DNA of 64,000 nt from Verrucomicrobiota bacterium. GTDB taxonomy: Bacteria > Verrucomicrobiota > Verrucomicrobiia > Limisphaerales > AAA164-E04. Of this stretch, positions 11,377 through 32,546 are shown piece by piece; within the stretch, counting starts at the first letter, position 1, and each line of letters begins with the position of its first letter. The notes beneath the pieces are model-generated. The model was given only the letters and a program-made list of their open reading frames with translations. It did not search any database and had not been told where the DNA came from. The DNA lies in NCBI GenBank assembly GCA_047947115.1, contig CP170459.1:5536001-5600000 (forward strand). The letters run 5' to 3'. Position numbers and translations under genes: made by a program.

Positions 11377-11540
11377 TCACCATTTTGAGGAGACCTTTCC
11401 GTAGTAATAGTTCAATATATTCTCAAGACAGCCTCCAAGGGCCTCTTGATCTTCCGGATTCTGGTTTTCAAATTCGGGCTGGATGATTTTGTTGGGGAGC
11501 ACTTGGAGTGAACGCTCCTGGTCATAATACAGTTTCAATT
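11377..11540 (-). pseudogene. Remnant of the C-terminus of an integrase-core (rve) transposase
   Basis: YYDQERSLQVLPNKIIQPEF...LGGCLENILNYYY resembles the YxxERxHQGLxNxII...LGGLLxYY tail of these transposases. The rest of the gene is absent. Confidence 0.5.
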
Positions 11541-11548
11541 TATACCAA

Positions 11549-14424
11549 TCATTGCGGACGAAACGGAGCTTCATTTGTAGGTTCTTCCTTCGCTGTCTTA
11601 GCGCGTCGTTCGGCGTCCTCTTTCATCCAGCGAAGCATGAGTTCGGGGGCATCCATACGCGGGTAATCGTGGAGTGCTTGCCAGTTGAATTCCTTGTCTA
11701 AAGGATCATAAGCCTTTAAGGGATCAAATATTTGTGGATGAACGTCAACAGCTTCATAAGCACTGAAATCTGGATCAGCTGTGAACATGTCCGACAGGTC
11801 GCTTGCCATCGCATCATACATGTTTATGGCCGGCATGCCGTGAATCAGATTGATGGTTTTAATAATAGACGGGATGGAGGTGTGGATATGTGAAACATGT
11901 CCGCGTCGTGCATATGGGCTGATGACCAGGCAAAGGCTGCGATGATGATCCACGTGATCTCTGCCATTTTGCGCGTCGTCTTCGGTAACGAAAATAGCCA
12001 TTTCCTTCCAGTAAGGTGTATGGCTGAGCAACTCAACCACCCGTCCCAGTGCAAGATCATTATCTGCCATATAAGATGCAAAGTAGGGATAGCCTTCCTC
12101 CGGACGTTCGGTAGCACCGTGGTCGTTTGGCAATGACATGGTAATGATACTGGGAAAAGGCTCCGCGCCGGACAGCCACTTTTCCTTTAAATCCAATTCA
12201 AACATATCAACGCGAAACTGATCGGGTATGTTTGTGTTGTAGGTCGCAAATCGTCGCGATGTATGTTCGAAGAGAGGGGCGGGAATCGGATAGTTCACAC
12301 CGATCTTCACGCCCGTCAGCGCAAATTCCTCTCCCCCTCTTCCGCCACTCCGGGCATCTCAAATCCGAGTCCAAAATTAAAGAAAGGAATTTCGTGACGT
12401 GCGAAATGATCCCAGAGGCTCCCCACCTGCATGTAGTCCTCCGGCAGTAACCCGGCTGAGGCCCCGGTCACCGCCAGTCTGCCGGGTGCGGACGAATCAT
12501 ACATGTAGCGTCTACGATTTCCATAAGATGCCGAGGTGCTTGTCTCACAGAACACCCCGGGATAGACCCCTTGCAACCAACGATGTCCATCAGCTGAATG
12601 ATCCGAATCACAATAAAAATTGTCCGAACTGGCAAATCGGCGCGCCAGTATCTGGTGGTTGGGCATGACGTTGACATTCTCAAGCACATCGTCAGGGCGC
12701 AGATTGGAGCGAACCGTCGCATTTACCCCGAAATCAGCCAAACTAGTTTCCGCCCGGGCATTTGGTAGTTCACCATAAATCTGGTCAAAGGTTCGATTCT
12801 CCTTAGCGATGAATACCGTGTATTTGATGGGAGAAGGATAAGCGCCTCGATAAGGTGGCACCGGATTGCGTTCTTTTGTTTCCCATGGTCTGCGAACACC
12901 CAGGTGCACGTTGTTTTCAATGACTTGCGCTGTCTCAGCTGGTAGCTGGGAATCCGTGGGGATGGGGAGGATGGATATCGTTCCCCGCATCAAGTTTCCC
13001 ATTCCGGAGCGTCCATCGAGGTCAACACCCGGCCCGCCATTTGGACCGGCCCCAAAACCCTTGGCATTGGCGACAATGAGCTGCTGTCCGTCTGGTGAAA
13101 CCGCCACTTTGCTGGGAAACCAACCAACGGGAATGTGACCAACCACCTCGAGGCTTTGGGTATCAATCACTCCGACGGCGTTGATGCCTGACTCCGCCAC
13201 GTATAATCTGTCCTTGTCTGGAGCCAGAGCCAAGCCAAATGGAATCACCCCTCGATAAACGTCCAACGGTTCGGGTAATCTCAAAGTGATTTCTTTCACT
13301 ACTTGATTCAGTGTGGTATCAATCACTGAAATGGAATCATTGTTTCCATTGGATACAAAAACGTGTCGACCGTCGCAGATTGTGGAATTAGGCGCCGCAC
13401 CGCCTATCGCAGGAATCCCTTCCACCATTTCACCAACTTGGATGCCGGTCTTAATTCGTGCAGTGATGCTTGCGTCATGTGGATCGGTAATGTCAATCGC
13501 ATAAACGGAAACCGATTCCTCCACGTTAGGATCCCCCAAGCCAGGCACGACCTTTCCTTCCGCCGTGGTTCCTTCTCTCATCTCTGGTGAATCATAGCCA
13601 AATGGAGGAAAACTGAGACCGGTCGTCATGAATTGCTTGGGATCAAATCCTTCAACTGTGCTGTATTCAAACATGCCGATGTTTGCGACATACAGTCTTG
13701 AACCATCCGGTGTGCAGGAGATCCCAAACGGGTATCGGCCGACTGAAATGACATCGATCACCTCCATGCTCGACGTGTCCAGACATATCACACGAAAATT
13801 CATTTGATCCACCACGTAAAGATGTTTTCCGTCGGGCGTCAGGGTCATGTCCCCCAAGTAGCTGTCCCGCCATTTTCGGCCTTCGAAATCGATATTCAAA
13901 TCAATCGTGCGTAAACGTTCTCGCCTTTCGTAATCCCAGACCATGACCGTACCGTCATCCCCTCCGGATGCGAAAAAAATCCTGGATGATGGGGCCTGTG
14001 GAATGGCCACCCCCATAAAGCAGGCATTTAGAACACCCTCATCTGTTTTCACGCCTTCAGGAATGGATGTGAACGAACGATCCTTCTGAAGTGGATTGGT
14101 GAGAATGGAAAAGGAAAACGGTTCAGTTCCACTGTTGACGGTAATGAGCACCCGAGCATCCGCTGCGAGCGCCAATCCGTAAGGATGTGGTTCGACCAGC
14201 ACCTGTGAACCGCGTGGGGTCAGAACACGTCCGTTTGGAATGACGGTCGTTCCTGTCGGAAAGATTTCACAATACCGCGTGCCTGCGGGAGCGGTCATGA
14301 CAAGTTTTGAGGCATTTTCTGTGTATGTCGCACCTCGGATGTGGCATAGACCCATTTTTACAAGGGCAATCAACGCGATAAATCGCAACCAAGGTGCGGG
14401 CCAATTATTCAAATATCTAAACAT
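11549..14424 (-). CDS. Bifunctional YncE/YVTN beta-propeller + phosphoesterase protein, split by a single-base frameshift near 12335
   Basis: ORF 12316-14424 has YVTN repeats, GHIPVGWFP and PIKYTVFIAKENRTFDQ. ORF 11549-12310 has SLPNDH, ADNDLALG and EDDAQNGRDHVD. One extra G in the G5 run (C5 at 12333-12337) joins them as EEGGEEFALTGVKIG. Confidence 0.85.
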
Positions 14425-19011: not shown

Positions 19012-21669
19012 ATGAAACAATCCAAATTCTGGTTTCTATCGGTAATTGCAGCTGGTTCTCTGGCCATTCAGCCTGAGGTTTCAGCCCAATTGACCATATC
19101 GCCCGAAGCGGGAAAAAGCGCGGTGGTGGATGTTATCTGCCCTGATTGTGTGACGGCCGACTTGTTTCCAAGTCCCTATGTTGAACAAACGCTGCCTGGC
19201 ATCCGTGAAGCCTTGTCCTATATCGGCTTTGATCTGAAGGCAACCTTGCCTCAAGGATCCTCCATTACCAGCGCCGTTTTGGACGTCTTCGACCTCAACA
19301 CGGAAGTCGACGATCAATTTGTCAACGTTGTACTCCTGGATGTTCCATCCGATTGGGATCCCGAAACGTTGGATTTCAATCTTGCCAAGTCCACTTACGG
19401 TGCGACTTCTCAGGATTCCCCTTCCGCCACTGTGGGAGTTGATCCGGCCAAAGCATTGTGGCAGGGGCGAGTTGCCATGAATCTGGAATTCCAGCCAGGA
19501 CGAGCCACGGTTGGATCACGTGCCATTTTTGAAAGTCAGTCTCCTTCAACCGACGCCCAACTTGTCGCCGCATTGAATGCTGCATTGGCAAATGGCGACG
19601 GATACGTCACCTTTGTGCTATACGGAGAAACACTCGATGACAACAACATGGTGGGTATAGAATACGGGGACGGTGAGCCTGGCCCTACACTTACCCTTCA
19701 AATTGAAAGTGGAGCCACTTCGGGCGAAACAGTGGTGTTCGATTTTGACGGCAACGATCCGGCCGCCTGGACTTCCGTTCAATCATCGGCAAAGGAGAAT
19801 GGCCCTACGGATCTGGGCATTATCAGCACCGAGGATCCTACTGTTGGCAACTCTGTTCCTCCCACACCATTGACTGGAACCGGATTCATCGGTCCTGTTC
19901 CATTCGAGGCAGAAGACGGAACCAACACCCGTGACAATGCGCATGAAACGCTTGTCTACCGTTCACCTGAGTTCGAAATCTCTCCAAACGGAGAAATCTC
20001 ATTCGCCTTGATCGGTGGCGCCAAACCTGGTTTTGACCTGGATGCGATCAATCAGGACGGATTGCCTGCCGAATCGGATGGAAACGGTTCGATCGGTGTA
20101 GCATTGAGAAATGCTACGACTGGGGAGTACCTGACATTCAACACGCGTACAGAAAACGGTGGTCAAGCTTGGGAAACGATCATTCTCGATGAAGAGATCC
20201 TTGGTAATGTGATTGAAGTTGGCGAGTCCTACACGCTTGATTTCATCGACTACCACAGTGGTGGCTGGGGCTGGGCAGGCCTCGACAATGTCATTATCAA
20301 GCAAGGCACACCGATCACTAAATACGACTTTGACGATGAAACACTTCAAGGTTGGACCGTTGTTGCGGGCTCGAGTGTTGAAAATGGTCCGACACAATTG
20401 GGTGTGATCAGCGAGAACCACCCCACCGTGGGCAATTCGGTCCCCCCCGCACCTTTGAATGCACCCGCGTTCATAGGGCCCGTGCCTTTTGAGGCAGAAG
20501 ACGGAACCAACACGCGTGATAACGCGCACAGCACTCTTGTCGTGAGATCTCCGGAATTCAAAATTTATCAGGATGGTTTGATTTCGTTCGCACTGATCGG
20601 CGGTTCCAAACCCGGATTCAATATTGATAAAATCAACGCCAACGGCCTGCCGGAATCTTCCGACGGAAACGGCTCCATTGGCGTAGCGCTTCGCAAAGCC
20701 AGCACGGGTGAATACCTGAACTTCTATACCCGTGCCGAAAACGGCGGCCAAGCCTGGGAGACCATTATTTTGGGTGAAAACGAACTCCGTGGCATGATTG
20801 AGTTTGATGAATCATATACACTGGACTTCATCGATTACCACAGTGGAGGCTGGGGTTGGGCAGGCCTCGATGACGTCACCATTCAGGAAGGGACTCCCGT
20901 CATTCGTTACGATTTTGATGACGAAACACTGCAAGGATGGACGGTTGTTGGCGATTCGAGTGTTGAGAATGGTCCGACACGATTGGGTGTGATCAGCGAA
21001 AACGACCCGAACGTCGGCGATTCGGTTCCACCCACACCATTGAACTCACCCGCGTTTATCGGTCCTGTTCCGTTTGAAGCAGAAAATGGAAGCAATACCC
21101 GCGACGGTTCGCATAGCACCTTGGTGCTGCGTTCTCCTGAGTTCCCGCTCCATGCCGATGGTGAAATTTCTTTCGCACTCATCGGTGGCGCGAAGCCCGG
21201 ATTCGACATAGAGGCAGTCAACACCAACGGACTCCCAACCGATTCCGCCGGAGACGGCTCGATCGGTGTTGCACTCCGCAAAGCAAGCACGGGTGAATAC
21301 CTGACCTTCAACACCCGCTCCGAAAATGGCGGCCAAGCCTGGGAAACCATCATCCTCAACGGAGATGATTTCGGTGACATGATTGAGGAAGGAGAGCACT
21401 ACACTCTCGACTTCATCGACTATCACAGTGGTGGTTGGGGCTGGGCAGGAATGGATGATGTGATCATTCGCCCCGGAACACCCGCACCCGCTCAGGCTGG
21501 GGGTATTACGGGTGTCTCCATTCAGGACGGGTCCATCGTCATTGAATACTCCGGCCAATTGGAAGCATCTCAATCCGTAACAGGTGAGTGGACTCCAGTA
21601 AATGGCGCGACCAGTCCATACTCCGAGGCCATTACGGAAGATTCCAAATACTTCCGAATAGTTGAATAA
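19012..21669 (+). CDS. Large secreted protein: DNRLRE-like N-domain + three tandem 195-aa beta-sandwich repeats + conserved C-terminal domain
   Basis: Signal peptide; YIGFDL...ITSAVL...PTLTL; three copies ending YTLDFIDYHSGGWGWAG(L/M)D; C-terminus VTGEWTPVNGATSPY...KYFRIVE. Confidence 0.85.
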   Translation: MKQSKFWFLSVIAAGSLAIQPEVSAQLTISPEAGKSAVVDVICPDCVTADLFPSPYVEQTLPGIREALSYIGFDLKATLPQGSSITSAVLDVFDLNTEVDDQFVNVVLLDVPSDWDPETLDFNLAKSTYGATSQDSPSATVGVDPAKALWQGRVAMNLEFQPGRATVGSRAIFESQSPSTDAQLVAALNAALANGDGYVTFVLYGETLDDNNMVGIEYGDGEPGPTLTLQIESGATSGETVVFDFDGNDPAAWTSVQSSAKENGPTDLGIISTEDPTVGNSVPPTPLTGTGFIGPVPFEAEDGTNTRDNAHETLVYRSPEFEISPNGEISFALIGGAKPGFDLDAINQDGLPAESDGNGSIGVALRNATTGEYLTFNTRTENGGQAWETIILDEEILGNVIEVGESYTLDFIDYHSGGWGWAGLDNVIIKQGTPITKYDFDDETLQGWTVVAGSSVENGPTQLGVISENHPTVGNSVPPAPLNAPAFIGPVPFEAEDGTNTRDNAHSTLVVRSPEFKIYQDGLISFALIGGSKPGFNIDKINANGLPESSDGNGSIGVALRKASTGEYLNFYTRAENGGQAWETIILGENELRGMIEFDESYTLDFIDYHSGGWGWAGLDDVTIQEGTPVIRYDFDDETLQGWTVVGDSSVENGPTRLGVISENDPNVGDSVPPTPLNSPAFIGPVPFEAENGSNTRDGSHSTLVLRSPEFPLHADGEISFALIGGAKPGFDIEAVNTNGLPTDSAGDGSIGVALRKASTGEYLTFNTRSENGGQAWETIILNGDDFGDMIEEGEHYTLDFIDYHSGGWGWAGMDDVIIRPGTPAPAQAGGITGVSIQDGSIVIEYSGQLEASQSVTGEWTPVNGATSPYSEAITEDSKYFRIVE
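19732..21486 (+). repeat. Intragenic tandem repeat, 3 x 585 bp
   Basis: Units start at 19732, 20317 and 20902 (VVFDFD / TKYDFD / IRYDFD) with long near-identical peptide blocks. Confidence 0.9.
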
Positions 21670-21761: not shown

Positions 21762-24700
21762 TTGAACAATCGAGTTGGAATGCGATTTTCTGCAGAAACA
21801 CTTCATACCGGATTAAAAAAAGCCCTTGTCCTATTGTTGTGGATGGGCTCACTGGTTGTAGCATGCTCAGACGAGGACGCTGCCAGAGGTGAGGCGAAAA
21901 CCATTCAACCTGGCATCGCCACCGCGCCCGGTTTGAAAGAAGCCAGCGGTCGTTATGTAGCGCCGCTTGCCGATGCCATGCATCGTGTTGATCCGGAGCA
22001 AGACGGATGGGAGTCGGAGGTCTTCAGCGAAAACGCAAGTGGAAAACTCAAAAAATGGGCCAAAGCGCTGACACAACCTCCACAAACATCTTCCTACCCC
22101 AAAACGCACCTCTTCGCCAGCCCGGTGAATCTTGGATTGAAACCAAAGGATCTTGGTCTGGTATTTAAGAACGCATCGTTTGAAGTAAAACGCGCCCATC
22201 ATTTCCAAACGCTTGGGCAAGGACATCCTAACGAACTGACAGAATCGTTCATGAAAAGCCTGTTCGACGGACTCCCAAAACATGTCGAACTCAAACTATT
22301 CAAAGTGGCAATCGACACATCGAGTGTGTTCACACGTGTCTATTTCCATGCCAACGGATTTCAATCCGGCGCCCGAAACCAGGTGAATGCTGAATGGAAG
22401 GTAGAATGGACACGGAATACGCAAGAGCCATTGTTAAAGTCCATTGAAGCCATTTCGCATGAAGAAATAGTAGCCATCACGACCGGGGAAGCACCACTTT
22501 ATGAAGACTGCACCGAGGCGGTCCTTGGGCAGAATACAAGTTATCGAGAACAAATACTCCACGGAACGGATCATTGGAGGACCCGGCTTAGTCGTGACAT
22601 GGGTCTTGATGTGATCGCTCACCATGGAATGGCTTTGGGGGATTTGAACGGAGACGATCTGGAAGACCTTTACCTTTGCCAGCAGGGAGGCCTCCCAAAT
22701 CGACTCTTCCTACGAAGCGCCGACGGCACCCTGAGGGATGTGACAGAGTCGAGCCGAACCGGTTGGTTGGATTACTCCACCAGTGCCCTGCTCGTTGATT
22801 TTGACAATGATGGCTACCGAGATCTCGTGGTTTGCCTGGAAGATCAAATCGTTTTCATGAGCAACGACGGGTTAGCACGGTTTACGGTAAGGAATCAAAA
22901 GCGCACTGCGGCGCAAACGTTTTCCATGACGGCGGCGGACTATGATTTGGACGGAGACCTCGATTTGTTTGTTTGTGGCTACAACCCCTCCCACGATTTC
23001 GCACAAGCCTCAGTCATGGGAGAACCCGTTCCTTACCATGATGCAGAAAATGGTGGTCGCAATTTGTTGTTTCGAAATGAAGGGAACTGGAAGTTTAACG
23101 ATGTCACGAATGCAACCGGTTTGAATGTTCAAAACAATCGTTTCAGTTTTGCGGCGACCTGGATGGATTTTGATCGGGATGGAGACCCAGACCTGTATGT
23201 GGCCAATGACTACGGGCGAAACAATTTCTATCGAAACAACGCCGGCATCTTCACCGAAATTTCTGCTGCTTTGGGGGTGGAAGATATGTCTGCCGGAATG
23301 TCCGCAACATGGACAGATGTAAACAGGGATGGCAATTTGGATATTTATGTCAGCAACATGTTTTCCGCTGCAGGAAACCGTATTGCGTTTCATGATCAAT
23401 TCAAACCAGGAGTCGATCCATCAACACTGCAAGGATTTCGTCGTCATGCTCGCGGCAACACCTTGTACTTGGGTTCGGACAATGCTGGCCCCTTTCAGGA
23501 TGCGAGTGAAGACATGGGTGTGTTCATGGGACGTTGGGCTTGGGGATCAAGATTTGTCGACTTCGACCAGGATGGCTGGGAGGACCTGGTGGTTGCGAAC
23601 GGTTTCATCACCACCGAGGATACTGGCGATTTGTGAAGTGTCTATTGGCGGCAGGTCGTGTCGCAATCACCGGTTGAATCTACAAGCAATGATCAGGCTT
23701 CCAGCTATCGCCAGGGCTGGGCTGCTCTGAATCAAATGCTGCACGAAGGAAAATCTTTCAGCGGCCATGAACGAAACTGTGCTTTTCTGAACTTGGGAGG
23801 AAATTCCTTTGCGGATGTATCTGGTCTCATCGGGTTTAATTTTGACGAGGATGGAAGAACAGTTGTATCGAGCGATTGGGACTTCGATGGAGATCTGGAT
23901 TTGTGGACGACCGCGCGCACCGCACCTAGGTTGAGGTTCTTAAAAAACAACAGTGCCGCAGAGCAAAAAAACTTCTTGAGTGTTCGATTGGTCGGCAATG
24001 GCGTGGAGAGCAATCGTGATGCAGTCGGAGCCATCGTGGAACTCTATCTGAAGAATGAAAAAACACCGCTCATTCGCACGGTGACTGCCGGGGATGCTTT
24101 CATCTCCCAGAACTCCCAATGGCTCACCTTTCACTACAGTCCAGACCAATCGATTCGAAACCTTTTCGTTCATTGGCCGGGAGGACAAAAACAGGTGGTG
24201 GATGAACTGATCTCAAAATCGTTTTACAAGATCCAACAAGGGAAAAAGGTAGAAATGTGGCGCCCGCCTTTCAGACCCATCGATATGAAAAGCGGCTTAA
24301 GCAAAGCAAATGCGTCCTCTGAACAGGCACGAATTGTCCTCACGGGGCGGCTACCCATCGTTCCGATCCATATCCGGGATGAACATTCAGAATCCGAGTT
24401 GCCGCAACAATGGTTAAAGGGTCCCTTGCTACTGAATCTTTGGGCTCCCTGGTGCCAGCCTTGTGTCGAGGAACTTTCGTCGTGGACCCAATCGGAGGAG
24501 ATCTTGCAGAACGCAGGCCTGCGTATAGTGGCCTTGAATGCCGATGGATCGGCTATCGATTCAGCCGAAAGATTGCTCCGGCGATTGCGTTTTCCATTTC
24601 ATTCTGCCCACGCAAAGCAGCAGACTGTTCTCAATCTGGATTGGTTCCAACGTTCATTTTTGGACCATTGGGCGCCACTCCCCATTCCATCCAGTTTCCT

Positions 24701-25625
24701 GATCGACCGGCAAGGCGACGTGGCCGTTATATATAAGGGACCTGTATCTCCTGAGCAGATATTGAAGGATATGAAGCTTCTTGATTTGAACATGAGTGAG
24801 CGTCGCGATGCGGCAATCCCTTTTGCTGGCAAATGGCTCAAACCGACGAGGTTTCCCAATCCCCTCCTGGTTAACGGTCAGTTTGTGGCCCACGACGCCA
24901 TCAGTGAAGGAACCACATATCTCCGGCGCTACCTCGAATCGGTGGATGACAAAAGTGTAGCATCTCCGGAACACATTGCGAAAATTGCGCATACGATTGG
25001 AACCTTGTTGGCAAAGTCCGAGGATCCATCAGCAGCCAAGTCTTACCTTGCCAAGGCGCTGCGGTTCGCACCCGATCATACGGGCTTGCGCATTGAACTT
25101 GCAGAACTGCTGCTCAGTAGTGCTTCTATTGACCATATCCAAGAGGCGATTGCCATTTTGAAGCCTGATCCAAAAGTTCAAGTGACCGATCCTGCGTCTC
25201 GTCGATTATTGAGTCAGGCATTTTTTTTGTGGGGTGAGTCACTCAAAAGCAGTCGTCAATATCCAGAAGCAGAACAGGCCTTTCGTCAATCGATTCAACT
25301 CGATCCAACTCAGGTAAAGGCTGCAGAAAAATTGGCATGGTTATTTGTCTCTCAAAACCCGGACCAAGGCCAACGGAAATCAAACGCCCTTGCCATTGCC
25401 GAACGTCTATGCGCGATCACCCATCGTAAACATGCCGGCTATCTGGATTTGCTGGCTTTCATTCAAGCCTTACATGGCAAACTCGAACAAGCTATCCGCA
25501 CCGCGGAAGAGGCTCAAACGCTTCGAGCGGATGCGCCGGATTCCAAGGCTTTCAAGGAGGGCAAAAATCGGATGGATCATTACCACAAGCGTCTCATTCC
25601 AGATCTGCGATCCGAATCGGATTAA
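21762..25625 (+). CDS. CRTAC1/FG-GAP propeller + ASPIC/UnbV + TlpA-like thioredoxin + TPR lipoprotein with one in-frame TGA (candidate selenoprotein); appears as two ORFs, 21762-23636 and 23658-25625
   Basis: Lipobox SLVVAC; many DxDxDGxxDL repeats continuing across the stop (NGFITTEDTGDL*SVYWRQVVSQSP); NRDAVGAIV...HWPGG; NLWAPWCQPC; C-terminal TPRs. Both ORFs are in the same frame. Confidence 0.85.
23634..23670 (+). promoter_or_regulatory. Candidate bacterial SECIS hairpin directly 3' of the in-frame UGA
   Basis: TGA agtgtct ATTG-g-CGGCA GGTCG TGTCG-CAAT cac: bulged stem 23644-23667 with a GGUCG loop. GCAGGUC starts after a 14-nt spacer. Confidence 0.55.
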
Positions 25626-26111: not shown

Positions 26112-29057
26112 ATGATCGCAAAGATATCACGCTTCGCCATGGCATTGCCCATCGCGTCAATAGCGCTCTTGGCAAACTTGAATGCACAGGTCCTCTTTCA
26201 AGAGGATTTTGAATCACTGCCCCTGGGCACGAATGTTGAAGAAGGCTTCGGCTTGGAAGTCTTCCAGGAAATTCCACCCAAAGGTTGGGACATCGTCAAT
26301 GAAGGCGTTCTTGCAGTCACCGAAGACGCCGATGGAAACCCCGTTTCCCGCATGGACAATGGTGTCTATGAATGGGTGGGTTGGAGTTTCGCTGACAAAC
26401 AATGGTGGGTCAATGTGGCCGGTGACCAACGTCGCTCCGAATTCGTCAATGGACAAGGCACCGTCATGATTGCTGATCCGGATGAATGGGACGATCAATC
26501 ACACCCAGATTCGGCCTCCAACGGATGGTATCGCACATTTATCACCACCCCAAGCATCGACCTTTCCGGTCAGGACGCAAACAGCACGGTCCTAGTTTTT
26601 GATTCCAGCTGGCGTGATGAATTCGATGGCAACTATCATCAAACCGTCAATATCACCGCCAGTTATGACGGTGGAGCCGCATCTGAAATTCTTCTCTGGG
26701 AATCCGACCCTGACAGCGACAACTTCAAGGATGACACACCGAACGAAACTGTCATTCTGGGACTCAACAATCCCGGAGGAGCTTCCAATCTGAAACTTAC
26801 CTTTGGTATGTTCGAGGCTGGTAACGACTGGTGGTGGGCAGTGGACAACATCAAAGTTGCCGTACCCCCAGTAGCGACCGGTGTTTCCGCGACAGCTTCC
26901 AGCTTCGACCTTTTACTTCTCGAAGGTCTTGGCAAGACGATTGACGAAAGTACTCTAACCATCCAAGTGGACGGCGCAGACGTAACCGGTTCGACCGTTC
27001 GTAATGATCTGAGTGGTGATTTCACTCAGCTTGTCTTCAGTTACGCGCATGATTCCCTCTGGGTTTCAGAATCCTTGCACACGATTAACTACTCCTTCAC
27101 GACTGGTGACGGAGTCCAAATCAGCAGCACCATCGATTTCACCGTGCCTCGCTTTGTGACCATTCCCGCAGGGCTAAAATTGGCGGATGTGGACACCAGC
27201 AACGAAGGATTCATCATGCGTGTCATTCAGGCTGACCAAGGCTTGGCCACCAGTATCGCTGTTCGTGAAGATCATTTGGCTGGCAGACTTCTGGACGCCA
27301 ACGGAGATCCTCTTGAAAATTATGCATTCACCCCGGACACACTCTATCCTCAGGTTGACGGAGAAGAATCTACCTGGTTTGTTCCTCTGATCAATTTGGA
27401 ACAAGATGGAAATGATCAAGGTGAATTCAATGGGGGTGCGACAGCTCCTATGGATGTGTTGGACAACATTATTCCAGGAATCCCTGGTGACGCCACTGCC
27501 GACACAGACAACATCACCGCTGAGATCTTCACTGTTGTTCGCATCCCTGAACCAGGAATGTACACCTTCGGATTCAACAGTGATGACGGTTTCCAAGTGA
27601 CAGCCGGCAACTTGCTCGATATCGAAGAACGTTTGGTTCTGGGTGAATTCGACGGAAGTCGTGGTTCTTCAACCACATCTTTTCCAGTTGCTTTTGAAGA
27701 AGCTGGCGATTATCAGATGCGCGCACTTTGGTTCGAAGGAACAGGTGGAGCCAACCTGGAATGGTTCACCATCACTCCGAACAAAGCCCTGTTGAATGAC
27801 ACAGACAATGGCGGATTGAAGACCTTTGCCTTCCGCTCCGGAAATCCTCTGGCTTTAACTTCTGTTTCCCCAGCCAATGGCACAGGTGGAGCGCCTTTGG
27901 CTCCAACCGTATCTTTCACCTTGGTGGACGGTTCCACAACTTTGGACGCAGCATCCATCGCGATGACCTTCGGCGGCGCCGATGTGACTCCTGAAGTGAA
28001 TACCACCGATGGCACACACGTCATCACCTACACATCCAGTAAGACTTACGGAAATGCCGAAGAGGTCAATGCTACTCTGACTTTCAGCGATTCCACCGGT
28101 CGATCCCGCACGGCCAGTACAACCTTCCGCACCTTGCGTGATGATTTGTTGGCTTATTGGGACTTCAACGATGATTCAGACGCTTCCAGCTCGGAAGACT
28201 TGAATCCCAACATTGATCTGCCTGCTTCATTGGTAGGTAACGCTGCATTCAGTGCTGATGCCGCTGGTGTTTCCGGGGCAGCTGGTGACCGTTCCATGTC
28301 CTTTGGTGACCCTCAGGACGGATCCAGCCTCTTGGTCCAAAGCGATTTCTTCAATGAAGCCGCTTACCAGGACACCGTCACGATTGCCTTGTGGCAGAAA
28401 TGGAATACCGATGTCACCGACAGTTCTGCCTTCTGGGTTGTATCGCCTACCACAGGTGGCAGCGCCCGCAGTGCTCAAGCCCATATTCCATGGAGCAATG
28501 GAAACGTCTATTTCGATACTTCCGGTTGCTGTGATGCTGCTACACAGCGTCTGAACCAGGCCATTACCGATTTCGATCCAAACTTTGATTGGACCGAATG
28601 GCATCACTTCACTTTCGTGAAAAACAAGGAAGTGAAGCAGATCTATGTTGATGGTCAGCCTTGGTTGGAAACCATCAATACCGGCGCCTTGCCAACCGAC
28701 AACGTTCAGCTCTGGATCGGGGCAGCCCCTCAGAGTGGCAATAGCATTGGTGGTTGGATCGATAACTTTGCCGTTTTCTCCAGCGCATTGACCGCGGATG
28801 AGATCTCTCAGTTGTTCGCTGGTGCGGCACCCCAAGACATCAAACCATGGGCAGAGTTCGCCGCATCATCTCCAGCCCCAACCTCAGGCATCAGTGGTAT
28901 TGCTGTTGTTGACGGTGGAGTTACCATCTCCTTCGAAGGTGTGCTTAAAAGCTCAACAACCGTCAACGGCTCCTACGCTCCCGTTGCGGGCGCCAGAGCT
29001 CCGTCCTATACAGTGAATCCGGACGTTGCCGAAACCATGTTCTTTATCGCTGAATAA
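26112..29057 (+). CDS. Large secreted multidomain protein (PA14-like, Ig-like, LamG-like) with conserved C-terminal domain
   Basis: Signal peptide; YTFGFNSDDGF...WFEGTGGANLEW (PA14); LLAYWDFND...WHHFTFVK...IYVDG...GWIDNFAVFSSALT (LamG); VNGSYAPVAGA...MFFIAE. Confidence 0.88.
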   Translation: MIAKISRFAMALPIASIALLANLNAQVLFQEDFESLPLGTNVEEGFGLEVFQEIPPKGWDIVNEGVLAVTEDADGNPVSRMDNGVYEWVGWSFADKQWWVNVAGDQRRSEFVNGQGTVMIADPDEWDDQSHPDSASNGWYRTFITTPSIDLSGQDANSTVLVFDSSWRDEFDGNYHQTVNITASYDGGAASEILLWESDPDSDNFKDDTPNETVILGLNNPGGASNLKLTFGMFEAGNDWWWAVDNIKVAVPPVATGVSATASSFDLLLLEGLGKTIDESTLTIQVDGADVTGSTVRNDLSGDFTQLVFSYAHDSLWVSESLHTINYSFTTGDGVQISSTIDFTVPRFVTIPAGLKLADVDTSNEGFIMRVIQADQGLATSIAVREDHLAGRLLDANGDPLENYAFTPDTLYPQVDGEESTWFVPLINLEQDGNDQGEFNGGATAPMDVLDNIIPGIPGDATADTDNITAEIFTVVRIPEPGMYTFGFNSDDGFQVTAGNLLDIEERLVLGEFDGSRGSSTTSFPVAFEEAGDYQMRALWFEGTGGANLEWFTITPNKALLNDTDNGGLKTFAFRSGNPLALTSVSPANGTGGAPLAPTVSFTLVDGSTTLDAASIAMTFGGADVTPEVNTTDGTHVITYTSSKTYGNAEEVNATLTFSDSTGRSRTASTTFRTLRDDLLAYWDFNDDSDASSSEDLNPNIDLPASLVGNAAFSADAAGVSGAAGDRSMSFGDPQDGSSLLVQSDFFNEAAYQDTVTIALWQKWNTDVTDSSAFWVVSPTTGGSARSAQAHIPWSNGNVYFDTSGCCDAATQRLNQAITDFDPNFDWTEWHHFTFVKNKEVKQIYVDGQPWLETINTGALPTDNVQLWIGAAPQSGNSIGGWIDNFAVFSSALTADEISQLFAGAAPQDIKPWAEFAASSPAPTSGISGIAVVDGGVTISFEGVLKSSTTVNGSYAPVAGARAPSYTVNPDVAETMFFIAE

Positions 29058-30223: not shown

Positions 30224-32155
30224 TCACTCCTTGATGCTCACAGAACGATTGTCACGTTGGCGCAACAACCGCCGCAACGGTTCCTCGCTTAATTTCCCTG
30301 AATCATCCATTAGAAGTGCCGCATTCTTTGTGAAGAAAAGATTCTTCTGTTTCCACATTTCCATCGTATTCCTGTAGCTTTCCAGTCGAACCGGGTATTC
30401 ATCCATAAAATCAAAGGGCGGCAAATCATTAGGCCAGGCGGATTCCAGACTCCTGCGCCCAATATATCGAACCACCGGATAGGGATCCATCAACAACTGG
30501 GAAAGAAACGGCGGCATCCATTGCACGCCCGAAATCTCCTGCGCCGGTTTCCATCCCATGTGCCAGGCCACAATGGCACGTTGCGCTGCATGTCCTTTTA
30601 ACATCCACAAAAGCGCCGCTGAAACGCTTTTCTGCTCATCGGTCAGGGACAGGCTTGGAGCATTGTAACGATCCATCATGTGGGTTTGAGTCCACTCCAG
30701 AGTCTTGTCCAGATGACATAAATTACAGGCATTGGGCACGCCAAATACGGCGCTTCCCTGCAGTTTTGGTGATTTCATCTCGTGACTGCGAATGGCTCCA
30801 AACAGGGCATAAGTTGTGTGAGGCATATGGCAGTTCAAGCAATCGCTTCCAGAGGAGTCAGGCGCATGAAACGTGTGTTCGCTGATCCGGTCGTTGTATT
30901 TTGCCTCCTGATGACATTGTACACAGGCCTGGTTGGAATCCATTCCCGATTTCAATTGATCTTTCGGAGGAGATTGATGCATGGAATGACAAGAAAGGCA
31001 GGACATTTTTCCCGATAAATAGCATTCGGACGATGACATGGCTGTGAACTCGCGCCCGCCCGCAAGAATGGTTCCGTCCTCCCACCAACGTTCCTGAAAG
31101 AACTGAGGATTCTTCTCAAGTTCATCCCATCGCTCGGGAGGATCTCCTTCTTTCGGGTAGTGGATGTAATAACGCGTATCGAACAGGTTGTCACCCGGTT
31201 TGAATTGGACGCCTTCGTGGGCAATTTTCATTCCGACCCTGTTGTTGGGTATGAATACCCCATGGCACTGACCACACACATGACTGGAACGTTCATGGTT
31301 TAACTTGGCTGGGTTCACGATGGTAGTGTCATCCTTCGATCCCAGGTGGGTTTGATATCGGTGGATCGGATTCTGATGGAATGCAATATGCTCTTTGCCT
31401 GGTCCGTGACAGGCCTCACAGCTGATGCCCAATTCCGCCACTTTCGTTTCCAACATCCCCGTTTTATCATTCAATCCGGGATTCCAACCAGTACCGTGGC
31501 ATCGAATACAATGATGATTCCATTGTGTCACCATGCGCTCCTGGTCATCCGGCCCCCTCATAAATGCCGCTTCCCGGGGAATCCAACGCTGGTCTTTGAT
31601 CAGATAAACTAGTGGAAGTGTCTGCAAAATATTGTCCATACGAGGACTTTCCACCCAATAGGTCTGATAATGATGTGATCCGGTCGTCAGCACCACTTGG
31701 CGATTCACATGAGGAATCCTGGTCAAGTCTCCCCCCTTGCCGCCTTGTACGGCCTGCATCAGCAGATCCGGATCCGGCATGTTGGCCCAATAGGTCTGGT
31801 TGGTTTGCGTCACTGTGTAATCAAGCCCCTCTGATGAGATGGTTTGCCCACTAAAGTCTCCAAGAACATTACCTTCTACAGGTAACATGGTCATGGAACG
31901 ATGGAATGTCCGCATCCAGGAGGCATGTTCGTCTGGATGACAAGTTTTGCAAGTATCGGACGAGGAATAATTCCCAAAACCACCCAATTCCGGGAGTTGA
32001 TCCGCTAGAATCTTCTCAGATCTTATTTTGATAGTTGATTGATGTCTGGCCGACATCATGCCAAAGACCATCAACATTGAGATCAAAGCTCCTAGTGCAA
32101 AAAAGATTGCCAGGATAAATGATCTGCCGGGTTGATTGGGTTTAGGCGCTGTCAT
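30224..32155 (-). CDS. Membrane-anchored multiheme c-type cytochrome (8 CxxCH)
   Basis: CKTCH, CIRCH, CEACH, CGQCH, CLSCH, CVQCH, CLNCH, CNLCH; N-terminal TM after ATG 32155. The track's longer start at 32491 is unlikely. Confidence 0.88.
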   Translation of the reverse strand: MTAPKPNQPGRSFILAIFFALGALISMLMVFGMMSARHQSTIKIRSEKILADQLPELGGFGNYSSSDTCKTCHPDEHASWMRTFHRSMTMLPVEGNVLGDFSGQTISSEGLDYTVTQTNQTYWANMPDPDLLMQAVQGGKGGDLTRIPHVNRQVVLTTGSHHYQTYWVESPRMDNILQTLPLVYLIKDQRWIPREAAFMRGPDDQERMVTQWNHHCIRCHGTGWNPGLNDKTGMLETKVAELGISCEACHGPGKEHIAFHQNPIHRYQTHLGSKDDTTIVNPAKLNHERSSHVCGQCHGVFIPNNRVGMKIAHEGVQFKPGDNLFDTRYYIHYPKEGDPPERWDELEKNPQFFQERWWEDGTILAGGREFTAMSSSECYLSGKMSCLSCHSMHQSPPKDQLKSGMDSNQACVQCHQEAKYNDRISEHTFHAPDSSGSDCLNCHMPHTTYALFGAIRSHEMKSPKLQGSAVFGVPNACNLCHLDKTLEWTQTHMMDRYNAPSLSLTDEQKSVSAALLWMLKGHAAQRAIVAWHMGWKPAQEISGVQWMPPFLSQLLMDPYPVVRYIGRRSLESAWPNDLPPFDFMDEYPVRLESYRNTMEMWKQKNLFFTKNAALLMDDSGKLSEEPLRRLLRQRDNRSVSIKE

Positions 32156-32546
32156 ATGTGTGTGCGATCTGAAATTTGACAAACAGACATTCCATATAAC
32201 CAGGGTAAGGTGACGGTTTTCAAACAAAATGGAAAAGATTTGAAGGAGATCTGGAGCAACAGACAACCCGCAGGCTTTGGGCGCCGCGGTATGAGACAGA
32301 GAGGAAGCGGGAGCGTCCTGGAAAGCACTTTGCTGTCGTCGGGCGGTATGGCACCATGATTCAATCAGGATTGATCCCATCTGAATACTTTGAAAGCAAA
32401 CTCCATTATCAGAACGTTGAACTGACACTGCATGGGGACTACGAACCCAATTGTAACAATCTTGTGAACGCGTGGTTTCCGACTTTGCCAAATGGCAGAA
32501 TTTAAGGTAGGGTAGTGTCCGTCAATAATAACTCGCTCCTTTTTTA

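Follow-up and report, generated by a model that had tools for sequence, protein, structure and literature searches.

Does the in-frame UGA codon that interrupts a long gene of a Verrucomicrobiota bacterium end translation, or is it read as selenocysteine (Sec), and if so, what might the residue do? The gene lies in a 64,000-nt stretch of contig CP170459.1 (assembly GCA_047947115.1, positions 5,536,001 to 5,600,000), which we refer to as the window. An earlier note on this DNA had proposed that 2 open reading frames (ORFs) share one frame here and are split by TGA 23634-23636 alone, and translation of the window bore this out: a single plus-strand frame runs from 21762 to 25625 with that TGA as its sole internal stop, and the junction reads ...TEDTGDL*SVYWRQVVSQSP..., the asterisk being the TGA. 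The codon is residue 625 when counted from the TTG at 21762, and residue 619 when counted from the ATG at 21780. Gene callers divide the read-through gene into proteins of 624 and 655 aa. The stop cuts a beta-propeller, as the note had also claimed; Pfam places FG-GAP repeats on both sides of the TGA, and an AlphaFold model closes one propeller across it.

The TGA is not an assembly error, because independent contigs keep it and a paralog shares the column. Contigs of runs X4, X10 and X15 that span the site all retain TGA 23634-23636 and differ from the window only at letters elsewhere, and a paralog in the source genome, 35% identical, carries a TGA in the same column. An error of sequencing or assembly was rejected on these grounds. 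The nearest named relative is a Pedosphaera metagenome-assembled genome (Verrucomicrobiota), with 93% identity across the junction. RNA runs X15 and X16, as contigs, cover the gene partly, but they cover intergenic DNA as well and therefore do not demonstrate transcription. A search of plasmids for relatives of the gene gave a single weak, unrelated FG-GAP match.

We observed that the TGA recurs at this column in three phyla. Among 61 sampled relatives, 28 matches, each with a single TGA at this column, came from 17 genomes; among 301 sampled Planctomycetota, 60 genomes gave 133 matches, of which 123 carry a TGA and 10 are stop-free; and a third phylum (that of genome G062) contributed 39 matches from 31 of 151 genomes, a TGA being present in 32. 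In total the genome searches returned 200 matches, 183 with an internal TGA, 17 stop-free and none with TAA or TAG. A part of these matches, with duplicates removed and with 2 distant Bacteroidota paralogs (L027 and L044) left out before counting, made up 134 distinct loci from the three phyla. When all stops were read through, the codon at the Sec column was TGA at 119 of these loci, which answers the question of recurrence that the earlier note had raised, and a sense codon at 15 (GAG 6, GAC 2, CGC 2 and five singles); TAA, TAG, TGG and TGY did not occur. In the source genome TAA and TAG together terminate half of the long ORFs (1,522/3,066) and TGA is the commonest stop (1,543/3,066), so that the standard genetic code applies; genetic code 4/25 was rejected for this reason and because the only tRNA with a TCA anticodon is tRNA-Sec. 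Up to 9 copies of the gene occur per genome (in G061). Separately, 3 loci, L136 (G087:C78), L113 (G079:C397) and L061 (G010:C42), have extra TGAs or a frame that ends soon after the Sec column, and these are probably broken genes or assembly errors.

Immediately 3' of the TGA, the RNA is predicted to form a hairpin resembling a selenocysteine insertion sequence (SECIS). The bulged hairpin that the earlier note had drawn at 23644-23667 is the minimum-free-energy fold of 23634-23690. Section 5 of PMC13188914 describes a bacterial SECIS (bSECIS) model with a loop of 3-9 nt, a stem of 4-16 bp, a G within the first two loop positions, 16-37 nt between this G and the UGA, and an energy of -7.5 kcal/mol or lower. 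The present hairpin falls within these bounds, with a 5-nt loop (GGUCG), 6 bp, distances of 11 nt from the UGA to the stem and 17 nt to the loop, and an energy of -8.7 kcal/mol. It also passed a loose stem-loop filter, as do 13 of the 294 junctions of the type long ORF/TGA/long ORF in the source genome. A scan against Rfam matched no SECIS model and gave only a chance CRISPR-repeat match (E 6.9). The significance of the hairpin derives from its conservation and not from the stability of the single sequence.

With regard to conservation, 24 distinct sequences, hand-chosen from subfamilies with the main register, had 144 of 144 stem cells paired and 16 double changes at 3 of the 6 pairs, so that the covariation test suggested in the earlier note yielded compensatory pairs; 0 of 500 shuffles scored as high, and stems slid along the alignment paired in only 15-70% of cases. 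The fixed register holds in 73 of 97 loci, and in the remaining 24 a stem in a shifted position encloses this G. Tandem TGA-bearing paralogs with a shifted register were seen in 2 places, 4 in L156 (G313:C204) and 4 in L163 (G241:C19). Compared with synonymous-codon shuffles, which keep the protein sequence fixed, the TGA copies fold more strongly (-11.3 versus -6.7; stronger in 118 of 119), whereas the sense copies do not (-6.8 versus -6.9; stronger in 5 of 15). The -7.5 limit of the bSECIS model is reached by 117 of the 119 TGA copies. Of the 119 TGA copies, 118 have a G at +21, which is predicted to be unpaired in 106; by itself this proves little, because the G also opens a conserved Val codon and is kept in 13 of 15 sense copies. 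The loop starts at +20 both in the gene under study and in its source-genome paralog, and the other UGA genes of that genome have loop starts at +21 (FdhA-like), +20 (SelD), +20 (GrdB-like) and +24 (the remaining one). These other genes with UGA and hairpin lie on contig G000:C1 of the source genome and are FdhA-like (UHxP) at 3463806(+), SelD at 3993863(-), GrdB/PrdB-like (UxxC) at 1612214(-) and peroxiredoxin-like (UxxC) at 3793083(-); their names come from motifs, SelD alone having been checked against a family model.

The machinery for Sec insertion, selA/selB/selC/selD in the earlier note's listing, is present in full in the source genome: selA and selB are adjacent, a Sec-type selD has its own in-frame TGA, and tRNA-Sec(TCA) was found. 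At least one of selA, selB and tRNA-Sec occurs in 97 of the 99 genomes with a TGA-bearing match (16/17 relatives, 56/57 Planctomycetota, 24/24 of the third phylum, plus G062), as compared with selA in 18 of 44 family-free relatives and 168 of 241 family-free Planctomycetota; this co-occurrence is given without a p-value, since related genomes are not independent. In one case among the 60 loci examined (G022:C19, L079:7162-12519), tRNA-Sec (11378-11475) and selD (11491-12519) come directly after the TGA gene on its strand, with the contig ending soon after. As a side observation, selA was found in 227 of the 301 sampled Planctomycetota genomes (75%), a high share, and the propeller selenoprotein family may be among the users of this machinery. 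Because the TGA column is conserved, because the hairpin covaries and decays in sense copies, and because the Sec genes are present, the UGA very likely encodes Sec, in agreement with the recoding that the earlier note had proposed. We are highly confident, from the comparison of sequences, that SelB would bind the G-containing loop about 20 nt behind the UGA and deliver Sec-tRNA.

What stands at the Sec column in homologs without a TGA was tabulated from the best 150 protein representatives, of which 132 are unsplit, the other 18 being half-proteins that result from a cut at the TGA. The unsplit representatives have Glu (41), Asp (24), Ser (22), Ala (14), Asn (11), Gln (6), Met (5) and Cys (3), and the three nearest distant paralogs in the source genome have Glu. 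The test in the earlier note, whether the TGA aligns with Cys or Ser, thus mostly failed for Cys, Glu and Asp being the commonest residues.

The state of this column is linked to a CxxC motif in the thioredoxin domain of the same protein. In copies that possess this domain, the motif is intact in 96 of 99 with TGA versus 1 of 12 sense DNA copies, and in 75 of 78 Sec versus 8 of 95 sense copies when protein representatives are included. Among 16 complete Sec copies that lack the thioredoxin domain, 8 have UxC, 2 have Ux4C and 6 have neither. A short PDG-U-x-C subfamily without thioredoxin domain or tetratricopeptide repeats (TPRs) was noted at L083, L130, L137, L162, L133, L141, L160 and L209. 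We also built a 203-row FastTree tree without the Sec column, dropping rows with fewer than 300 residues upstream or 110 downstream, and on this tree the Sec state changes at least 18 times. In 9 independent pairs, CxxC followed Sec in 6.4, opposed it in 0.2 and showed no difference in 2.3 (median p 0.03). Rooting with the three distant source-genome paralogs failed, as these did not group, and the counts (27 losses after one gain versus 30 gains) favored neither gain nor loss; at several points on the tree, sense copies are nested within Sec clades. Asn539, Ser667, Cys898, Cys901 and Glu904 distinguish Sec copies most specifically, and columns 625, 667, 539, 898, 901 and 904 are one another's top co-varying partners, forming a closed set in an analysis uncorrected for ancestry. 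This set of six, Sec625 included, is lost together with Sec. Because CxxC is lost with Sec, and because most Sec copies without a thioredoxin domain have a nearby Cys, Sec and the dithiol probably act together.

The features of the gene are collected in Table 1. An exported lipoprotein of about 1,280 aa with a WCQPC TlpA domain had been predicted in the earlier note, and the length, the lipobox and the domain matches are all consistent with that prediction, export itself being predicted. The N-terminus has a basic start, a hydrophobic stretch and VVAC, as judged by eye and by pattern; a lipobox-like motif by a loose pattern occurs in 25 of 57 full-length Sec copies, and a hydrophobic N-terminal stretch in most of the others. 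The N-terminal alpha/beta domain had no Pfam match, and its look-alikes in the Atlas were 'hypothetical protein' clusters only. In the thioredoxin domain, for which PF00578 scores over cut-off and the fold matches, WCQPC supplies Cys898 (24453-55) and Cys901 (24462-64), followed by Glu904, and Pro976 is conserved in the cis-Pro loop. Cys673, in an ERNC motif, is not conserved with Sec.

Table 1. Features of the read-through gene (coordinates of the window)
Feature	Coordinates	Strand	Details
Read-through gene	21762..25625	+	1,287 aa (TTG 21762) or 1,281 aa (ATG 21780); both starts possible
Predicted lipoprotein signal peptide ending in lipobox VVAC	21762..21866	+	Cys35, codon 21864-21866
N-terminal alpha/beta domain of no known family	21939..22481	+	AlphaFold model
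FG-GAP (integrin-type, CRTAC1-like) beta-propeller with helical insertions, spanning the TGA	22500..23933	+	Pfam PF13517/PF01839, model, Foldseek
Asn539, Sec-linked residue	23376..23378	+	76% of Sec copies versus 2% of sense copies
In-frame TGA, putative selenocysteine codon	23634..23636	+	Residue 625, opens predicted helix 625-633
SECIS-like hairpin	23648..23664	+	6-bp stem 23648-23653/23659-23664, loop GGUCG 23654-23658
Ser667, Sec-linked residue	23760..23762	+	99% of Sec copies versus 17% of sense copies
ASPIC/UnbV domain	24021..24215	+	Pfam PF07593 over cut-off
TlpA/ResA-like thioredoxin domain	24405..24725	+	Pfam AhpC-TSA/Redoxin (PF00578/PF08534); PDB TlpA 1jfu, ResA 1st9
TPR repeats	24981..25523	+	Pfam TPR families

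An AlphaFold2 model of residues 60-1033, with Sec entered as Cys and an alignment of 104 rows, had a predicted local distance difference test score (pLDDT) of 93.7 and a predicted template modelling score (pTM) of 0.94, and shows four domains: the N-terminal domain, the propeller closed over the TGA, ASPIC/UnbV and thioredoxin. In this model residue 625 is predicted to start a helix within a helical insertion, or cap, on the propeller; the model thus agrees with the earlier note as to the propeller and departs from it as to a plain loop. The best Foldseek match of the model is murine CRTAC1 (9etn, E 8e-24), followed by TlpA/ResA for the tail. A phmmer search with the propeller alone found no match in the PDB. 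The homolog P0001, which bears Cys at the Sec column, was also folded as two chains, one being its propeller (225-748) and the other its thioredoxin part (866-1052). The score was 0.81 versus 0.00 for the best of 3 controls; the mark set for docking is attained by 116 of 157 solved complexes, as well as by 2 of 215 mismatched pairs. Contact agreement between runs was 72%, with partner pLDDT of at least 84. Docking of this kind is unsurprising for two segments that belong to a single chain. Among the residues in contact are those of the loop preceding the thioredoxin cis-Pro (992-997) and of the end of the helical hairpin that carries Sec (680, 682).

The reading we favor, and which we regard as fairly probable, is that the UGA encodes Sec in an exported propeller, where it would form a redox centre, to be restored by the TlpA-like CxxC domain of the same protein. 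In the sequence of events that we envisage, SelB would read the hairpin behind the UGA so that Sec is inserted at residue 625, and the protein would be exported and lipid-anchored to the membrane, as predicted. Sec625 would lie at a helix start in the helical cap, a predicted position that may stabilize a selenolate, and its pocket would probably include Asn539 and Ser667. The selenolate would attack an oxidised substrate outside the cytoplasm, candidates being a peroxide, a sulfoxide or a protein disulfide; oxidised Sec would then be reduced by Cys898/Cys901, which may take electrons from a DsbD-type protein, and the TPRs may bind protein partners. In Sec copies without a thioredoxin domain, a Cys at the second or fifth position after Sec would in most cases resolve it instead. 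Where Sec is lost, all six residues of the set go with it, and such copies are likely to be redox-dead binding or scaffold proteins. The cycle taken as a whole chain, from an extracytoplasmic oxidised substrate to reset by Cys898/Cys901 with DsbD-type electrons, we consider reasonably probable.

Several observations weigh against this reading. The single hairpin is no stabler than dinucleotide shuffles of itself (z +0.36 to -0.92). Cys, the usual stand-in for Sec, is at background at the column, with 3 of 132 unsplit representatives at the protein level and 0 of 15 sense DNA copies, and two of the three Cys-bearing representatives lack CxxC. Three Sec copies have a thioredoxin fold and no CxxC, 8 sense copies retain CxxC, and 6 of the 16 Sec copies without a thioredoxin domain have no nearby Cys. 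The contrast in CxxC between Sec and sense copies may be inflated, the two sets having come largely from different searches, and on the FastTree tree the sign test gives p 0.008-0.375 across pairings. The confident contacts in the P0001 fold include neither the Sec-equivalent Cys644 nor Cys917/Cys920; the Sec/dithiol relay suggested in the earlier note draws its support from the co-loss of CxxC with Sec, the modelled contacts showing no direct Sec-Cys pair. Two TGA-bearing draft genomes, G019 (85% complete, 500 contigs) and G240, show no Sec gene. Furthermore, 9 of 10 genomes that hold only sense copies retain selA or selB, so that machinery and Sec copies are no strict mirror of each other and the loss of Sec is specific to this gene. 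Finally, none of the neighbors across 60 loci is conserved in a way that points to a substrate.

Some of these same observations would suit a different role for the residue, in which Sec is inserted and serves as an anionic metal ligand or covalent nucleophile, while the thioredoxin domain keeps it reduced or has substrates of its own. Glu and Asp are the commonest stand-ins (65/132) and occupy the column as Glu in the three nearest distant source-genome paralogs, Cys hardly ever substitutes, 6 Sec copies lack both the thioredoxin domain and a nearby Cys, and the P0001 fold shows no direct Sec-Cys contact. Glu, Asp, Ser and Asn are, however, also favored at helix starts, and Ser and Arg are one base from TGA; moreover, a carboxylate does not preserve the site, because sense copies lose Asn539, Ser667 and CxxCxxE jointly. 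We judge this role, the strongest of the alternatives, unlikely, although it deserves to be kept in view. It would be quite improbable, in our estimation, that the UGA is a selenium-dependent switch in which the ratio of truncated to full-length protein matters and Sec is chemically idle. The column tolerates many residues and Sec decoding competes with termination, as such a switch would have it, but a stop inside the propeller would leave the N-terminal half with missing blades, and the co-loss of CxxC, Asn539 and Ser667, together with the UxC subfamily, points to chemistry at the residue.

Explanations that dispense with Sec fare worse. Hairpin-stimulated read-through by a near-cognate tRNA (Trp, Cys or Arg), or a code in which UGA is sense, could draw on the A that follows the TGA in 75 of 81 copies, on the two TGA genomes without Sec genes and on the rarity of Cys homologs. 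Yet TGA is the commonest stop and tRNA-Sec the sole TCA-anticodon tRNA, Trp occurs in 0 of 132 unsplit homologs, TAA and TAG are never found at the column, the hairpin has the same geometry as in the genome's own Sec genes, and Sec genes accompany 97 of 99 TGA-bearing genomes; we consider such decoding highly improbable. That the locus comprises two real genes, with a conserved split and re-initiation behind the stop, strikes us as scarcely credible. An ATG directly follows the TGA in 6 of 97 copies, a GTG lies 7-8 codons on in many, and databases store the halves as separate proteins, but the first possible start ranges from codon 1 to codon 102 and is missing from the first 8 codons in 28 of 97. 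The codons between stop and start also retain the residues of unsplit homologs (Trp in 95/97), with synonymous changes and no frameshift, a plain stop would be expected to drift to TAA or TAG, and the C-terminal half has no signal peptide of its own.

The surroundings of the gene were examined in the same 60 loci. Clustering of neighbors revealed no conserved partner, only other FG-GAP genes, opposite-strand shadows and scattered families, and Pfam classed 20 neighbors as a mixture of secreted LamG/PA14/CBM/CotH proteins. The suggestion in the earlier note that the large secreted proteins on either side could be clients is unsupported, because no neighbor family is conserved and each of these 2 proteins has only 2 Cys. 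The 2 flanking proteins (19012-21669 and 26112-29057) share a tail of about 45 residues that ends in a (F/Y)(F/Y)(R/I) strand; this pattern fits 74 of 1,170 source-genome ORFs of at least 500 aa, suggests a C-terminal sorting domain of Verrucomicrobiota, and often occurs in genes next to the Sec gene in this group of genomes. At L089:2114-5857 and L093:9926-13618 the upstream neighbor is an FG-GAP/ASPIC-UnbV protein with an N-terminal SCO1/SenC thioredoxin fold and a C-terminal beta-helix. The window also encodes, at 30224-32491(-), a 755-aa multiheme c-type cytochrome (paired CXXCH, c554-like matches), and a DsbD-type gene is present in the source genome.

In comparison with known systems, the locus resembles FdhA and SelD genes of the SelB-bSECIS type in having an in-frame UGA, a hairpin in the coding region with a loop G 16-37 nt behind it, and selA/selB/selC/selD in the genome; its hairpin geometry equals that of the source genome's own FdhA-like and SelD genes. 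The protein is like CRTAC1/ASPIC-UnbV (9etn) in the order of FG-GAP propeller and UnbV_ASPIC (Foldseek template modelling score 0.72 by target; CRTAC1 profile match E 4e-30). It is unlike CRTAC1, at 15% identity, in its extra N-terminal domain, the helical cap with the putative Sec, the fused TlpA-like domain and the TPRs, and our literature searches found no report of a catalytic or Sec role for the CRTAC1/ASPIC-UnbV family. With TlpA/ResA/DsbE extracytoplasmic thioredoxins it shares WCxxC with a Glu three residues on, predicted export and a DsbD-type electron source. PilB of Neisseria is a TlpA-fused methionine sulfoxide reductase, and it offers a working analogy for a catalytic domain that may be fused to its own reductant; here, unlike in PilB, the partner is a propeller and not MsrA/MsrB, and the PilB-type model NF010625 of NCBIfam matches weakly in the thioredoxin part only. 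The known TlpA-like selenoproteins with UGC or UxxC differ in having Sec inside the thioredoxin fold, and NF041054 reaches a score of 28, its cut-off being 300.

The earlier note knew of no such described selenoprotein family, and the sources compared agree. No model of NCBIfam 20.0 exceeded its cut-off (all were far below) and none lay on the junction, and Table 1 of PMC13188914, a 2026 catalogue of 119 prokaryotic selenoprotein families, has no FG-GAP, ASPIC, UnbV, CRTAC1 or propeller entry; the same terms are not mentioned in the parts of PMC12013277 covered. Word searches found no FG-GAP/ASPIC-type matches in the text of PMC13326102 and its one supplement, and no report of a propeller selenoprotein family in the portions of bioRxiv 2022.07.06.499078 covered. 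In full-text literature searches, whose scope did not extend to subscription papers or RefSeq annotations, the family was not reported as a selenoprotein. By its own statement, in the sections of PMC12013277 covered, deep-Sep may miss families that lack Cys homologs.

The conserved sequence features indicate that we are very probably dealing with a widespread, multi-phylum and uncatalogued selenoprotein family, atypical in lacking Cys counterparts and possessing a thioredoxin domain that co-evolves with Sec. Since Sec is kept in three phyla and almost never swapped for Cys, we also raise, more tentatively and at slightly less than even confidence, the possibility of a new class of exported selenoenzyme on a CRTAC1/integrin-type propeller, with a chemistry beyond the reach of Cys. 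The family, which protein databases store split in two, adds a large selenoprotein family on a fold unlisted for Sec (among the genomes sampled, it occurs in 60 of 301 Planctomycetota and in 17 of 61 relatives of this marine Verrucomicrobiota genome), breaks the Sec/Cys-pair rule of prediction tools, and is a test case for why Sec is retained. If the family is indeed such a selenoenzyme class, it would be one of the largest bacterial selenoprotein families and would prove that filters based on Cys homologs conceal whole families. It would likewise provide the first catalytic site in the ASPIC/UnbV family. CRTAC1/ASPIC-UnbV proteins, a family without a function, gain a defined candidate active site together with natural 'dead' controls.

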